A stretch of DNA of 64,000 nt from Octopus vulgaris (GCA_951406725.2 OX597819.1:80910001-80974000); one strand, 5' to 3'; positions 6,796 through 63,254 are shown, counted from the stretch's first letter. The notes: a model not told the origin generated them from the sequence alone. Made by a program: numbers and translations.

Positions 6796-6860
6796 ATAGC
6801 CAGATCATCGATGATTTCGCATTTTGATACTCACACACCTTAATGCTCATCGGTCGCTCT
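6796..6860 (-). ncRNA. Degenerate minimal type-I hammerhead ribozyme
   Basis: Minus strand: agagcga-CCGATGA-GCATT..AATGC-GAAA-TCATCGATGA-TC-tggct; U4C change, imperfect stem I. Confidence 0.55.
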
Positions 6861-7140
6861 CACTGAGCCTTGGGTTAAACTCACCTCACCCGGCCACTTT
6901 ATAAGATTTCCGTTATCATACGCTGATTTCATAAACAGTAAAAGTGAAAATTATAGATAATATGGGTGGCTAATTCACAATTTTACAACCTAAATGGAGA
7001 AATATATACATCATTAAAGTGAACAAGGGCTCTAATTAATACCATATGTATATTATAATATGGTTGCTAATTCGCAATTTTACCATCTAAAGGCAGAAAT
7101 ATATACGTCATTAAAGTCACTAATCAACACCATATATATA

Positions 7141-7562
7141 TTCTCTTTTACTCTTTTACTCTTTTACTTGTTTCAGTCACTTGACTGCGGCCATGCTGGA
7201 GCACCGCCTTTAATCGAGCAAATCGACCCCAGGACTTATTCTTTTTGTAAGCCCAGTACTTATTTTATCGGTTTCTTTTGCCGAACCGCTAAGTAACGGG
7301 GACATAAACACACCAGCATCGTTTATCAAGCAATGCTAGGGGGACAAACACAGACACACAAACACATACACACACACATATATATATATACATATATACG
7401 ACAGGCTTCTTTCAGTTTCCGTCTACCAAATCCACTCACAAGGCTTTGGTCGGCCCGAGGCTATAGTAGGAGACACTTACCCAAGGTGCCACACAGTGGG
7501 ACTGAACCTGGAACCATGTGGTTGGTAAACAAGCTACTTCCCACACAGCCACTCCTGCGCCT
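7141..7562 (-). mobile_element. SINE family A, full length
   Basis: Ends cacacagccactcctgcgcct (reverse complement of the head); carries tail module and (ctttta) repeats. Confidence 0.9.
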
Positions 7563-7572
7563 ATGTATGTAT

Positions 7573-8120
7573 GTATAATCAAATGAAAAACATATGATGG
7601 ATAATTGTCGGCTAATTACAACTGTTTCTTACGTAATCTTTTAATAGAAGAATGAGAACATTACATCATTATCAAAGACCGCAATCATCAGATGAGAAGT
7701 AATCTTACAAAACAAAAGAATATCCCAAGAATACAGTAGGAATGCAAAATTACTTCTCATCCGATGATTATGGTCTTTGACAATGATGTGATGTTCTCAT
7801 TCCTCCATTAAAAAGCTGTAATGAGCTGACAACTATCCATCGTGTGCTATTATTCATTTGATTATAATAGCCCAAGGAAATTTACGGTTTGTCGGACACC
7901 CTAGAGTATACCAACAACGTACTATTCAAAGTAATGCGTGATTTGGACCAGCCCCTTAAGCGCTAAATACTCATAGGGTTGGTTTTCATTGTGTACACAA
8001 CCGAAATATCCTATCTGATATTTCGACTCACACTAACCATAGGCCGTAACCACAGAGATTACCCAACCCTACCAGGTGCATACCTTTTCAAGTACCTGAT
8101 TTTATCTGAATCCTCATCTT
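7573..8120. mobile_element. Penelope-like pseudo-LTR remnant with inverted arms (~7574-7708 / ~7745-7866)
   Basis: Arms are reverse complements of each other and carry a hammerhead motif; flanked by TA-type repeats. Confidence 0.65.
7612..7696 (-). ncRNA. Minimal type-I hammerhead ribozyme
   Basis: Minus strand: ctcat-CTGATGA-TTGCG..CGTAA-GAAA-CAGTTG-TA-attag; the decayed mirror copy at 7756-7825 supplies agctg-ta-atgag. Confidence 0.7.
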
Positions 8121-9060
8121 ATATATATATGTTTTTATAAATGGCAATTTCTGTCTGTTTGTGACTCTGTGTGTGTTTGGGGATTTGTTACTTTAATTCC
8201 TCCAAGACTATCCAACCGATCTTGATGAAATTTGACACGTGTGTGGGGCTTATGTCCATGCGGTCACCTACGCATTGTGAATTTCAAACAAATCGATAAT
8301 CTTTAATCAGCATCGACTTTACAAAAATCAGTAGGACACTTCAATGCAAATTTTCATATGAATGTTATTTTCTGCCATAACTTTTAAAGTTTTCGACCGA
8401 TTTTCTTGAAATTTTATACACAGGTGGAATATGCACTAAGCATGGTTTGAGGCCAATACATTTTTACCTAACTTACTCAAGCCAAGCGTAAGATTATTTT
8501 TGATTAAGCGATTAACGAAATTTGACCTAAATTATTGTGGGGTTAAAATGTTCATCAATTATATCAACATTCTCAGGTTGCTGTAACATGTATTTTCTTA
8601 ACACCTGCACTTAAAATTGTCGATATTTGATTCTCACGATCAATTGAACTATACCCATGGAGAGTCGTCAAATTAATGTGTACTTAAAATTTGCTCTTGG
8701 GTTGCAAGAGAATTGGTTAAAAAATGACGAAAATTGTCATTTTTTAATGCTTTTATACTACCTCATAGCATCTTACGATTCTTATGCCCCCCCCCACCAC
8801 GTTGTCCCCTCAGCACTCTAGCAATTTTTGTAAGTATAAAATCTCTTATCTCTAAATAATTTTTTGTTTACTTTTTAAACTTTTATGGGGTTTTTTTTTC
8901 CATAGAACTCCTTTATAATTCCCTTCTTGATGTTTTCATTGATTATATATTTGCAGCTTTCTACTTATCTGACCAAACGATTGTCATTTTCCGATTCCAC
9001 ACGTATTCATTTGTATTATTGTTTCGTGAATGAATTTGCTTACGCCTTCTATTATCTGTC
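8118..9060 (+). mobile_element. Helitron-like non-autonomous element (3' end uncertain)
   Basis: 5' ataaatggcaatttctgtctgt..., aaccgatcttgatgaaatttgacac; homologous to 25770-25930 and to the 47030-47075 end. Confidence 0.55.
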
Positions 9061-9122
9061 CGATGTCTTGATTTCATTTTCCGTCTGAGAGAAATTAGGC
9101 ATTGTAATGGGTACCTAAGCTA

Positions 9123-9500
9123 TACCAACCACATGGTTCCGGGTTCAGTCCCACTGCGTGGCACCTTGGGCAAGTGTCTTCTACTATAGCCCCGGGCCGA
9201 CCAATGCCTTGTGAGTGGATTTGGTATACGGAAATTGAAAGAAGCCCGTCGTATATATGTATATATATATGTGTGTGCGTGTATGTTTGTGTGTCTGTGT
9301 TTGTCCCCCTAGCATTGCTTGACAACCGATGCTGGTGTGTTTACGTCCCCGTTACTTAGCGGTTCGGCAAAAGAGACCGATAGAATAAGTACTAGGCTTA
9401 CAAAAGAATAAGTCCCGGGGTCGAGTTGCTCGATTAAAAGGCGGTGCTCCAGCATGGCTGCAGTCAAAATGACTGAAACAAGTAAAAGAGTAAAGAGAGT
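9123..9500 (+). mobile_element. SINE family A, 5'-truncated
   Basis: B box gggttcagtccc, CORE-like caccttgggcaagtgtctt, tail cagtcaaaatgactgaaacaagtaaaagag. Confidence 0.88.
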
Positions 9501-60910: not shown

Positions 60911-60961
60911 TTTGTCAGTGAACAGGTCGCGGTCTTAAAGCGACGAAAATATTTTGACAAA
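60911..60961 (+). ncRNA. Minimal hammerhead ribozyme, G3-C8 core variant
   Basis: tttgtca-GTGAACA-G-GTCGCggtcttaaaGCGAC-GAAA-ATAT-TT-tgacaaa. Confidence 0.65.
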
Positions 60962-62507
60962 TTAAACTTAAATGTTGAAGTGAATCGAACGGTTTTGTGT
61001 GTTTCTTAAATGGCTTACAAACACCTTCCACGCGGCAATTGTTTTCGTTTCAGCACACGATCTCAGATCAAATCACTTGCTATGCAAGTACATCTCTGTA
61101 ATATATATATATATGTATATGTATATATATATATGTGTGTGTATGTGTATGTGTGTGTGTGTGTGTGTGTGTGTGTGTGTGCGTGCGTGTGTGTGTGTTT
61201 ACGCAGTAGTTGGTGTCGTGTGAAGTTGGCATCAGTGATCAATGTAAATAGTGACGTCATTCATGTAAAGTGGAATGTTTTCAACTGGCTGAGAAAATGT
61301 TGTGAACGTGGCAACGTAAAGGATGCGGAGAGTGATGTTGGGTACCGGGCTAATATGAATTCGGAAGTAGCGGCAGAGTCCAGTCGGAAAGAAAGATTTA
61401 TAAAAAAAAAAAATGAATCATTAGACTGGTGAATAAAAGAAGAGTTCACCAAAAGAAGTCTACTCATTTCAGAGGTAAATGAAAGGACTCTCTAAATTAT
61501 ATTCCATGAATGCTTACTCGCCTCTTAATTAAAGTTCTTTTATTTTGCTTATACTCAACGGTTTTAGTTGTTATTGTCAACTCTTCTGACTTATTAAACT
61601 ACCACCGCTTTCCGCTCTAAACAAGTTGGTTTGCTGAGCTACGGACACATACTGTTGAACCCGTGTTGAGGGTAGCATCGAGAGGCCATAGGGTTCAGCA
61701 ATATATATATATATATATATATATATATATATATATATATATACATATACATACGTACGTACGTATACACATATACACACACGAACATATATATTTGGAT
61801 ATGTATATATATATATATATCCTTATGTTTGCACCTTGTGCGTTAACCATTGATAACATTAAATGAAACTGATAATGTTTTAGGTTTTTCATGTCATTTA
61901 AATTAATGTGACTATTCCGCACTTGTTTTCCGAAAATGGAACGGTTGGGGGCGAGTTTGTGGTGGGATGGCTCCTATTCTAGCAACCTACGTACTGTCTA
62001 TTTCACAGTAATGCTTTTTGCAGAATGAAAAAAATACTCCACTTATCACTCAATCCACCTCCGACTTCCTCTAAGTTTATACATTACATTTATTCCTTTG
62101 AAGTTGCCGCTGGACCTCTACTTTCCCTTTGTCTATTTGTCCCTCTATATGTCTCTATCTGTCTCGCCATCTTCCTCTTGAGAAAAATACGTCAGACAGA
62201 TAAAAAGAGGGTTAGGGAGAAAAAACAAGCGTGACGGGGGGAGAATGACAGATGACATACATACTTACATACATACATACATACATACATACATACATAC
62301 ATATATATATAATTAAAAAGTCAATAAAGAAAAATGGAAACGAAAAATTTAAAAGATGCTTGTTTCATTTTATTTGTATTACAATTGGAAAAGTAATGGA
62401 AATTAAACGATAAAAACATATACCTATAAGAACAAATATAAAAGGAACCGAAACAAGTATAAAAGGAACCACATCAACAAAATAACCCCCAAATATCCAA
62501 AAATATA

Positions 62508-62587
62508 TTCTACATGTGTTTCAATATAACAATATTTTAGAATCATTAATAATTGTAACATCTAAAAATGTAGGATCGCTTCAAGAA
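62508..62587 (-). ncRNA. Degenerate hammerhead ribozyme
   Basis: Minus strand: ttc-TTGAAGC-gat..att-GAAA-CACATG-TA-gaa; core and stem II decayed. Confidence 0.35.
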
Positions 62588-62811
62588 AAATAAGTATATT
62601 TTAGTCTTGAGTTACGAAATGACTTATTCGAGGACTATTAGCTAGTATTGACTCATCGAATTTATTTGAAAAAATATATGTATCTTTTATAGAGACTTAG
62701 TAATTTTAATATTTCTATTATTGAAAACAAGTGGATGTATTCCACTGAAACTAGGTAAATATAAGCCTTCGAACAGAGACGTCAGTGGCGACACCTGCGG
62801 GGTCTGACTGT

Positions 62812-62853
62812 GCTACATTGACAAGGGGCAATACCCCGAAACGCGTCTGTAGC
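62812..62853 (+). ncRNA. Minimal hammerhead ribozyme, U3-A8 variant, intact
   Basis: gctaca-TTGACAA-GGGGcaataCCCC-GAAA-CGCG-TC-tgtagc, at the tip of a longer hairpin 62761-62903. Confidence 0.85.
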
Positions 62854-63213
62854 TGTCGGACTGGCAGTGTGAAGCGGCTGACCTCCCTTGTTCGAAGGTT
62901 ATAATGGATACAGATCGTGTATCAATAGCTATCTTAAGGCGGTGGCCTTATGGAGCTGACCAGCGGCAGCGATTATTCTTATATCTATAAGAATGCCATA
63001 TTAATATGGCGATAACAATTAATTTCCAGTAAACGCTGTCGTAATCTCTTTTATAGAGACTTAGTAATTTTAATATTTCTATTATATATACATACATATA
63101 TATATATATATATATATATATAGTAGGGAAAAATTTTTTTTAAAATGCAGAATGCTCAAATGAAAGAAAATTTTAATAAAATGAGAAATTGATAAAATAT
63201 ATAAATATATATT

Positions 63214-63254
63214 TATTCAACCGGTTTTCGTCATTGTATGACTTGTCAAGAATA
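63214..63254 (-). ncRNA. Minimal hammerhead ribozyme, U3-A8 variant
   Basis: Minus strand: tattc-TTGACAA-GTCATacaATGAC-GAAA-ACCGGT-T-gaata (one base off the canonical register). Confidence 0.6.

Follow-up and report, generated by a model that had tools for sequence, protein, structure and literature searches.

Minimal hammerhead motifs in the Octopus vulgaris genome as probable ends of Penelope-like elements, with natural variants of the catalytic core

Introduction

What does a dense set of hammerhead ribozyme motifs in repeat DNA represent, and is self-cleavage needed for the spread of the elements that carry them? The question is raised by a 64-kb stretch of the Octopus vulgaris genome (OX597819.1:80910001-80974000; assembly of 2.80 Gb in 227 contigs), which we analysed at its whole length and refer to as the window. 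An earlier reading by a model, here called the sequence-only reading, had proposed about 18 minimal type-I hammerheads from at least 10 families, nearly all beside (TA)n tracts, and had extrapolated to a very large genome-wide ribozyme load of short elements without an open reading frame (ORF). We consider it likely that the motifs are the hammerheads of the 3' pseudo-long terminal repeats (pseudo-LTRs) of many families of Penelope-like elements (PLEs), together with one retrozyme family. They occur as short truncated or fold-back insertions by (TA)n, would be copied from uncut RNA and would not need self-cleavage in order to spread.

Hammerhead motifs in the window

The window consists of repeat DNA, with 126 tandem-repeat rows, two abundant families resembling short interspersed nuclear elements (SINEs) and remnants of LINEs (long interspersed nuclear elements) and of mariner elements. 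No host gene was recognised in its 64 kb, and 100 of its bases are N. Motifs were counted with a scored type-I hammerhead descriptor that tolerates a single core change, imperfect stems, an extra base after A9 and any Watson-Crick pair at 3-8; it supersedes a strict mismatch-free descriptor, which recovered only three distinct window motifs. At scores of at least 7, 9 and 10 the descriptor finds 15, 13 and 11 motifs, compared with means of 1.9, 0.48 and 0.21 (maxima of 7, 3 and 2) in 200 local dinucleotide shuffles and with 2, 2 and 1 matches in the reversed window.

These counts bear on the view that the motifs are chance matches in AT-rich, repeat-rich DNA. Shuffles do miss chance hits that repeats have multiplied, and one hit of 10.5 points (locus L157) lies in apparent LINE coding sequence. 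Its homolog at 57796-57917 (-) of the window has no core, reads as LINE coding sequence itself and was dropped. The excess of 13 over 0.48 at score 9, the 54 hits against 4.9 in the genome sample described below, and reversed-pattern controls that are all 0 nevertheless refute chance for the counted families and leave it a negligible probability overall.

In total the window holds 19 hammerhead motifs in 13 families, in keeping with the at least 10 families foreseen. Fourteen of the 18 proposed coordinates are direct descriptor matches; the other four (10068, 15552, 24005 and 63214), which fall below the scorer, are confirmed as copies of hammerhead families. The expected proximity to (TA)n also stands: 15 of 18 motifs have a (TA)5+ tract within 250 nt, as do 36% of random window positions. 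The features are as follows (percentages are identities; "." marks features without a strand).

6798-6858 (-): minimal hammerhead (6796), C4 core, 12-nt palindromic stem III; score 11.3; its sole homolog (L221, 76%) is also C4
7612-7696 (-): minimal hammerhead, consensus core, one stem I mismatch; homolog in L135 at 75-78%
7574-7866: inverted repeat enclosing the 7612 hammerhead
9868-10141 (.): family C fold-back insertion (Hydra-type PLE 3' end) with two hammerheads inside
9972-10017 (-): family C hammerhead (9976), C4 subfamily, weak stem II; score 9.0
10064-10108 (+): family C hammerhead (10068), decayed, two core changes
10403-11053 (.): family D inverted pair, Neptune-type PLE 3' ends; 90-95% to the ORF-bearing copy L235
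10459-10503 (-): family D hammerhead (10463), U3-A8 covariant core; score 12.0
10937-10983 (+): family D hammerhead (10942), U3-A8; score 12.5
11152-11237 (+): minimal hammerhead, consensus core, long stem II; score 16.0; predicted double-hammerhead dimer
15444-15733 (-): family C truncated 3' end, short fold-back; 99% to an ORF-intact unit
15552-15589 (-): family C hammerhead, consensus core, 2-bp stem II (a family trait); family pattern with 5,021 exact matches
16943-17161 (-): family A 5'-truncated Neptune-type 3' end, ending in (TA)n; 84% to a young ORF-intact subfamily
17052-17089 (-): family A hammerhead (17053), U replacing A6, extra base after A9
18214-18307 (+): minimal hammerhead (18216) of the 44627 family, consensus core, decayed stems; score 7.1; intact homolog in L097
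24008-24057 (+): decayed copy (A14 changed) of a true hammerhead family (24005); 56 genomic matches
32205-32308 (+): minimal hammerhead, consensus core, 13-bp stem II, long AT-rich loop; score 13.4; partial copies to 94-96%
34172-34206 (-): family B hammerhead (34173; sister of A), consensus core in the window copy; family pattern with 7,951 matches
42608-43064 (.): second family D inverted pair, with U3-A8 hammerheads at 42668-42705 (-) and 42927-42974 (+)
44627-44710 (-): additional minimal hammerhead, overlooked by the sequence-only reading, consensus core; score 8.1; 79% to 18216
60911-60961 (+): G3-C8 hammerhead, extra base after A9; score 16.6; 5' end of a 190-bp element at ~60906-61101
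62685-63085 (+): retrozyme-like unit of ~364 bp with 37-bp terminal redundancy (slightly more than one unit)
62812-62853 (+): retrozyme type-I hammerhead, U3-A8, 6-bp stem I plus extension, 4-bp stem II; score 16.2
63214-63254 (-): U3-A8 hammerhead, one base short near the cut site; homolog L217 at 86%

The inverted mate of the 7612 motif, at 7743-7866, has lost the motif and was not counted. Fourteen of the 19 motifs have a consensus or covariant core (consensus, U3-A8 or G3-C8), two of them with decayed stems. The remaining five fail the core consensus, three through family-level changes (U6 at 17053, C4 at 6796 and 9976) and two, 10068 and 24005, through decay; 18216 and 63214 are decayed copies as well. 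Stems I and II, A15.1-U16.1, H17 and a self-complementary stem III pass the scorer in 15 of 19 motifs. Among seven motifs folded, a double-hammerhead dimer is predicted for 11152, 15552 and 62812, the dimer of 32205 is predicted to form stems II and III only, and those of 17053, 10942 and 60911 are predicted not to be double hammerheads. The motifs thus belong to real hammerhead families, but they are not all intact, with U6, C4, decayed copies and a 2-bp stem II among them.

The motifs are invisible to standard annotation, as had been foreseen. Rfam finds no hammerhead in the window at its gathering threshold and, at E <= 5, none among the best 150 of 225 window matches; its genome scan has 6 Hammerhead_1 matches among the best 73 of ~263,000 candidates, a figure not usable as a count. 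The families at those six sites (L001-L006) differ from those of the window.

A genome-wide load of order 10^5

To place the window in its genome we consider a blind sample of 70 blocks of 10 kb (700 kb), set at round coordinates on 30 contigs of 21-226 Mb. At score 9 the sample contains 54 hits where 4.9 are expected, or one per 14 kb, which corresponds to ~196,000 genome-wide (bootstrap 136,000-264,000). Hits with an intact core number 34, where 1.25 are expected, or one per 21 kb and ~131,000 in the genome (79,000-191,000). When decayed homologs of a 195-entry library (54 clusters, 4 of them judged chance) are added, the blind hits number 83, with 0 in reversed controls. After 4 hits were discarded as likely chance, 79 remain in 700 kb, one per ~9 kb or ~3x10^5; for the 74 backed by a second copy, the bootstrap range is 208,000-388,000. 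Exact patterns of six families set a floor of 34,309 matches: 17,677 (A), 7,951 (B), 5,021 (C), 2,480 (60911), 1,085 (62812) and 95 (D, in its form with a 6-nt loop).

The very large load is therefore borne out at the order of 10^5. The proposed density of one motif per 3-4 kb holds for the window (19 in 64 kb, one per 3.4 kb), which is ~2.6-fold above the genome average, but as a genome figure it was ~2.6-4x too high; the 40 kb adjoining the window contain 3 motifs. (TA)5+ tracts lie within 250 nt of 70% of the 54 blind hits and of 32% of random positions, in agreement with the proposed targeting of (TA)n. We estimate that the motifs are mostly broken-off PLE ends, at a few hundred thousand copies per genome.

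Motifs at the ends of Penelope-like elements

Three window families (A, C and D), with eight motifs, are the 3' pseudo-LTR ends of truncated PLEs, and two of the three have intact ORFs. Family C (9976, 10068 and 15552) is the end of a 3.35-3.36-kb element with an intact frame of 711 aa (L231). Its ORF is marked by RWK, DKT, a CxCX5C linker and a C-terminal endonuclease, the second Cys being F in L230; Pfam has no match in this Hydra-type ORF. The core is consensus in 86 of the first 100 copies listed, stem II of the main subfamily has only 2 bp, and (TA)n follows the tail. All 30 family C loci chosen by their tail extend 5' across the predicted cut site and none starts there. Eight end at -43 to -46, often the fold-back point (the ungapped walk along the 5' ends produced three spurious short ends). 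The 5' ends of families A, C and 60911 cluster at fixed sites just upstream of the motif. Copies of family C and of the G3-C8 family (L190-L229, L261-L290) are very often perfect fold-back hairpins with their turn 5-20 nt upstream of stem I, a turn that could correspond to the 5' end of an RNA or to a strong stop.

Family D (10463, 10942, 42668 and 42932) is another Neptune-type element, with a C-X4-C-XX-C linker, seen as the frameshifted copy L235; reverse transcriptase (RT) and GIY-YIG sequences lie upstream in 4 of 20 loci. Two more families are linked to PLEs through related copies: the relative of 11152 (L170, 79%) is found 671 nt behind a Hydra-like endonuclease fragment, and the homolog of 63214 in L217 lies 692 nt behind a GIY-YIG fragment. 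The link to PLEs and retrozymes drawn in the sequence-only reading is thus sustained, whereas its picture of a load made up mainly of short ORF-less elements is not, most motifs being 5'-truncated or folded-back ends of ORF-bearing PLEs. A decayed Neptune-type PLE frame also lies 10-20 kb beyond the right end of the window (L189:5943-8161, -), and the 1.3 kb behind it contain no recognisable hammerhead.

The load might instead consist mainly of short, self-standing ORF-less retrozymes that cleave as dimers and are carried in trans by PLE proteins. This holds for the 62812 family with its tandem 361-bp units (4 of 9 sites) and is possible for 60911 and 24005. However, RT/GIY-YIG frames run on into families A, C and D, whose copies are 5'-truncated to graded extents, and the retrozyme family accounts for 5 of the 79 blind hits, families A and B for 22. 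As an account of the load as a whole we therefore regard it as unlikely.

Within the ORF-less group, a retrozyme-like nature is shown for the 62812 family only. Its units measure 360-362 bp with 40% GC, and their longest stop-free run is 87 aa. The predicted circular fold is rod-like, with a minimum free energy of -125.7 compared with -79.4 +/- 4.5 in 60 shuffles (z = -10). By these traits the family matches non-LTR retrozymes and is a likely cephalopod retrozyme. For the 60911 family, which forms uniform 190-bp copies, a retrozyme nature is possible. Most aligned copies of the 24005 family retain GAAA and the palindrome. Closely spaced and inverted copies of it, ~290-370 bp apart, are seen at window 23960-24300 and in L252-L260 and L165, and it may be a second retrozyme-like family.

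Family A, a young Neptune-type element with a U6 core

Most copies of family A are 170-300 bp long, 5'-truncated and terminate in (TA)n ~110 nt behind the motif, and longer copies continue into an RT/GIY-YIG frame. In a protein search the best 115 of 23,910 candidates all match at 93-100%; 112 are stop-free and many have identical scores. Seven long-ORF loci share 96-99% identity over 4.3-4.6 kb, with a unit of 4.47 kb. The frame of RT, Cys linker and GIY-YIG is open in five of them, begins downstream of the family start codon in one and is broken in one. Pseudo-LTR tandems, with the motif on both sides, occur in five of these seven full-length loci, and the units of a tandem array are 99.7% alike. 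The 963-aa coding part contains DKG, YIDD, a C-X4-C-XX-C linker and GIY-YIG; Pfam recognises RVT_1 (E 1e-7), with GIY-YIG below the cut-off. The Neptune-type frame has 159 homologs at E <= 1e-30, most of those listed with RVT_1 and some with GIY-YIG, and neither Pfam nor PDB has a match to the C-terminal 354 aa. By their motifs, families A and D are taken as Neptune-type PLEs that carry an endonuclease (EN+), the choice over Nematis being provisional and based on the linker.

The hammerhead of this element has U in place of A6. Among exact copies, U6 occurs 15,730 times and A6 180 times. U6 is likewise found in 96 of the first 100 listed matches of an open-core pattern (counted by eye) and in all 14 blind copies anchored by the tail alone. 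When loci are selected by ORF, the motif lies 375-933 nt downstream in 24 of 30, and all 24 have U6. Twenty of the 180 A6 copies were examined; they are scattered within U6 subfamilies in the manner of back-mutations, and three perhaps form a small old lineage. In a tree built without the motif, the flanks of the subfamilies are up to ~0.5 changes per site apart. In four contig sets the summed depth over the family A block is ~tenfold higher and the H17 variant is seen; as the known N7 variation is missed, these sets are not taken as evidence on U6.

Around position 6 the fold is well kept. Variation in the 38-nt block is confined to outer stem I, N7, H17 and CpG sites, and variable columns number 3 of 38 in the block and 22 of 85 in the tail (p = 0.03; with 95 rows, many of them chosen by the U6 pattern, this is rough support). 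N7 is A in 24, C in 22, G in 11 and U in 43 of the first 100 listed matches, H17 takes two bases, and neither loop II nor the extra base varies. For families A and B, a competing helix that would join stem II to a conserved word downstream was discarded, stem II itself having a probability of 0.90. In the predicted monomer, U4-G5-U6 is paired to the stem III palindrome. Tail-anchored copies run through the block in 14 of 17 cases, and three consist of the tail only, one starting near the cut.

Could the block be a linear DNA or RNA signal, such as a promoter, a start site or a protein-binding word, whose hammerhead shape is mere ancestry? The invariance of loop II and the extra base would suit such a signal, as would the 5' ends that pile up in families A, C and 60911 at fixed sites just upstream of the motif. 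Yet N7, with all four bases, and H17, with two, vary within what the ribozyme rules allow, and sister family B changes the length of loop II and swaps a stem I pair in a compensatory way. These features make a purely linear signal improbable. Although cleavage would be slowed or stopped by A6U, the fold is otherwise kept through successive subfamilies, and this suggests selection as an RNA structure. The odds are about even for the reading in which the U6 motif is slow or dead, kept as an RNA structure for binding or folding by the element protein, and cut slowly at most with the help of protein. We file the motif as a hammerhead variant whose status as a ribozyme is putative.

Altered cores in other families

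Family B resembles family A in having a changed core in most copies: among the first 100 listed of its 7,951 matches, 72 have C4, 26 have U4 and 2 have A4, with C4 distributed by subfamily. Stem I covaries between A and B. C4 recurs in 14 of the first 100 listed copies of family C and in both copies of the 6796 family. In the 60911 family, G3 is present in 98 and C8 in 95 of the first 100 listed of 2,480 matches. A U3-A8 core is found in family D and in the retrozyme family. Across the window and blind families with a scored core, suspected chance clusters excluded, 23 of 26 keep a consensus or Watson-Crick covariant core.

Is self-cleavage needed for spread?

We propose that the element protein would nick (TA)n, that reverse transcription would start in the tail, 35-115 nt behind the hammerhead, and that RT would pass the motif uncut and, in many cases, halt or fold back a short way beyond it. 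That ribozyme ends are more numerous than full elements would follow from this. An uncut RNA template fits the copies of families C and A that cross the cut site. Moreover, family A has recently multiplied despite A6U, which argues that self-cleavage is likely unneeded for transposition. The term ribozyme load overstates activity: the two largest families are mostly U6 or C4, and the anatomy of the copies points to an uncleaved RNA template. A further step, which we offer tentatively and hold to be possible rather than probable, is that a dominant, recently active PLE family converted its hammerhead to a fold that does not cut or cuts conditionally, with A6U fixed across a subfamily radiation and the fold still under selection, and that sister and unrelated families were damped independently (U4C, 2-bp stem II).

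A competing view holds that the U6 and C4 motifs work as ribozymes in the cell, that dimers and the element protein compensate for the changed cores, and that cleavage or circularisation belongs to the cycle of every family. In its favour, the positions that drift inside family A are only those that hammerheads leave free, 7 and 17; stem I covaries between A and B; and the U3-A8 and G3-C8 swaps preserve the catalytic 3-8 pair. The hammerhead of an Anolis PLE is protein-assisted (PMC11167929), A6C is active with Mn2+ (PMC7151607), and U4C supports viroid infectivity. Set against this, none of 30 family C copies starts at the cut site, the predicted family A monomer mispairs U4-G5-U6 with the stem III palindrome, the predicted 17053 dimer is not a double hammerhead, and mutant hammerheads left insertion in vitro unchanged (PMC11167929). 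We give working ribozymes a real but lesser chance.

Several points weigh against copying from uncut RNA as the general rule and against dispensable cleavage. Most families retain a consensus or covariant core, and it can therefore be argued that cleavage is selected in most lineages. U4C keeps its function in a viroid, so a non-consensus core need not be dead. Copies that span the cut would also arise from a cut and religated circle. The modest contrast between block and tail (p = 0.03), together with the invariant loop II, would fit a sequence-specific signal as well as a fold. Finally, no linked ORF was found for family B or for 6796, 7612, 18216/44627 and 32205 (few loci each), and none for the G3-C8 family, of which 20 loci plus two stretches of greater length were covered.

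Other elements in the window

A nearly whole LINE occupies 18543-22449 (+), with an upstream CCCH-type zinc-finger frame followed by endonuclease and reverse transcriptase frames, the latter two overlapping out of frame at ~20422-20482; its 3' end recurs at 41351-41761. Remnants of mariner (Mos1-type) transposase (HTH_48) lie at 24665-25021 (+) and 27557-28153 (-). Three adjoining frames at 51532-52876 (+), with no Pfam match for the two scanned, presumably resemble a broken DNA transposase. The two SINE-like families are found at 7132-7572 and ~ten further places and at 28407-29392, and one of them is arrayed in tandem (233 bp, 3.2 copies) at 28586-29351.

Significance

Why EN+ PLEs carry hammerheads is a question that Craig et al. 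(2021; PMC8557442) raise in calling their function unclear and asking whether the motifs parasitise the elements. The genome offers a natural test at scale: family A has an intact ORF, its young and almost identical copies run to thousands, its change at a catalytic position is fixed, and sister lineages with consensus cores stand beside it. There are further ~10^5 structured RNA motifs, grouped in ~50 sequence clusters and missed at Rfam thresholds; a likely cephalopod retrozyme and a natural G3-C8 core are among them. If the more tentative reading, of a hammerhead converted to a non-cutting or conditionally cutting fold, is true, the EN+ PLE hammerhead would be primarily a structural signal for the element protein, and damping it would favour spread. 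This genome would then be among the densest known hammerhead loads, with a natural allele series of A6/U6, U4/C4 and C3-G8/U3-A8/G3-C8. What this adds is a large catalogue and a sharper test rather than a new kind of system.

Comparison with known systems

Lunse et al. 2017 are said to have found ~150,000 hammerhead variants across genomes. In the literature searched, which left Lunse 2017, Arkhipova 2017, Repbase and Dfam outside the comparison, there is no catalogue for the group at such scale, no A6U family and no natural G3-C8 family. The sequence-only reading had left it open whether cephalopod motifs have been catalogued. They are not wholly uncatalogued, since one Octopus bimaculoides hammerhead has been described and the giant squid paper lists 235 Rfam Hammerhead_1 hits.

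Minimal hammerhead ribozymes (min-HHRs) in the PLE pseudo-LTRs of metazoans reach top counts of ~9,000 in Xenopus and ~4,000 in coelacanth, and have low activity as dimers (Cervera and de la Pena, 2014; PMC4209133). In the portions of that paper covered, they share with our motifs the type-I minimal fold, the palindromic stem III, the extra base after A9 and the U3-A8 covariant. They also occur as many dissimilar families per genome and mostly as solo copies, with inverted pairs 100-700 bp apart. By contrast, one 27-mer here has 15,730 exact copies, although the descriptors differ and densities are not strictly comparable. The same portions, with one supplement file outside the search, name no cephalopod and no A6U, U4C or G3-C8 family.

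The elements resemble the Neptune-type and Hydra PLEs of Craig et al. (2021; PMC8557442), in the parts consulted, in their single frame of RT and C-terminal GIY-YIG, Cys linker, (TA)n targets and tandem or inverted copies. The one Octopus bimaculoides hammerhead reported there, Hydra-1_oBim, belongs to a different family from those of the window, and searches of the supplement returned neither the family A nor the family C motif. The family C hammerhead agrees with that of the coral Hydra-2_aMil in stem I, in the core and, except for its centre base, in stem III, and has a wholly different stem II; this likeness would reflect deep conservation or transfer. The family C unit of ~3.35 kb exceeds the 'generally <3 kb' of the Hydra clade, and the core of family A is non-consensus.

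As far as covered, the papers on non-LTR retrozymes (PMC7229834; 10.64898/2026.07.22.740005) describe elements like the 62812 family: tandem units of 170-400 bp without an ORF, GC <45%, a type-I hammerhead with a 6-bp stem I and a 4-bp stem II, and a strongly self-paired circle, which for the 62812 family is a predicted one. Mussel retrozyme units measure 350-390 bp. The U3-A8 core sets the 62812 family, known here from DNA only, apart from the published retrozymes, and the main texts of these two papers name no octopus or cephalopod retrozyme.

Regarding cleavage, the closest case in the passages seen is the Anolis Poseidon element PAc, whose hammerhead mutants insert normally in vitro. Its main substrate is uncut RNA, RT starts internally, and cleavage needs protein (Frangieh et al., 2024; PMC11167929). 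PAc was studied through engineered mutants in vitro, whereas family A is natural, ORF-intact and recently amplified, with a fixed core change. Among natural core variants, U3-A8, U4C and a position-6 change are rare and of lowered activity, known from single phage or viroid cases (Perreault et al., 2011, PMC3088659; PMC7151607). The lowered activity of A6 changes refers in both papers to A6C, not A6U; their passages on natural core variants do not name A6U and mention G3-C8 only as an engineered swap. The class to which the octopus motifs belong is thus already described, by the min-HHRs of 2014, the mollusc retrozymes of 2020 and the Hydra elements of 2021, and what is new here is the scale together with the natural core variants.

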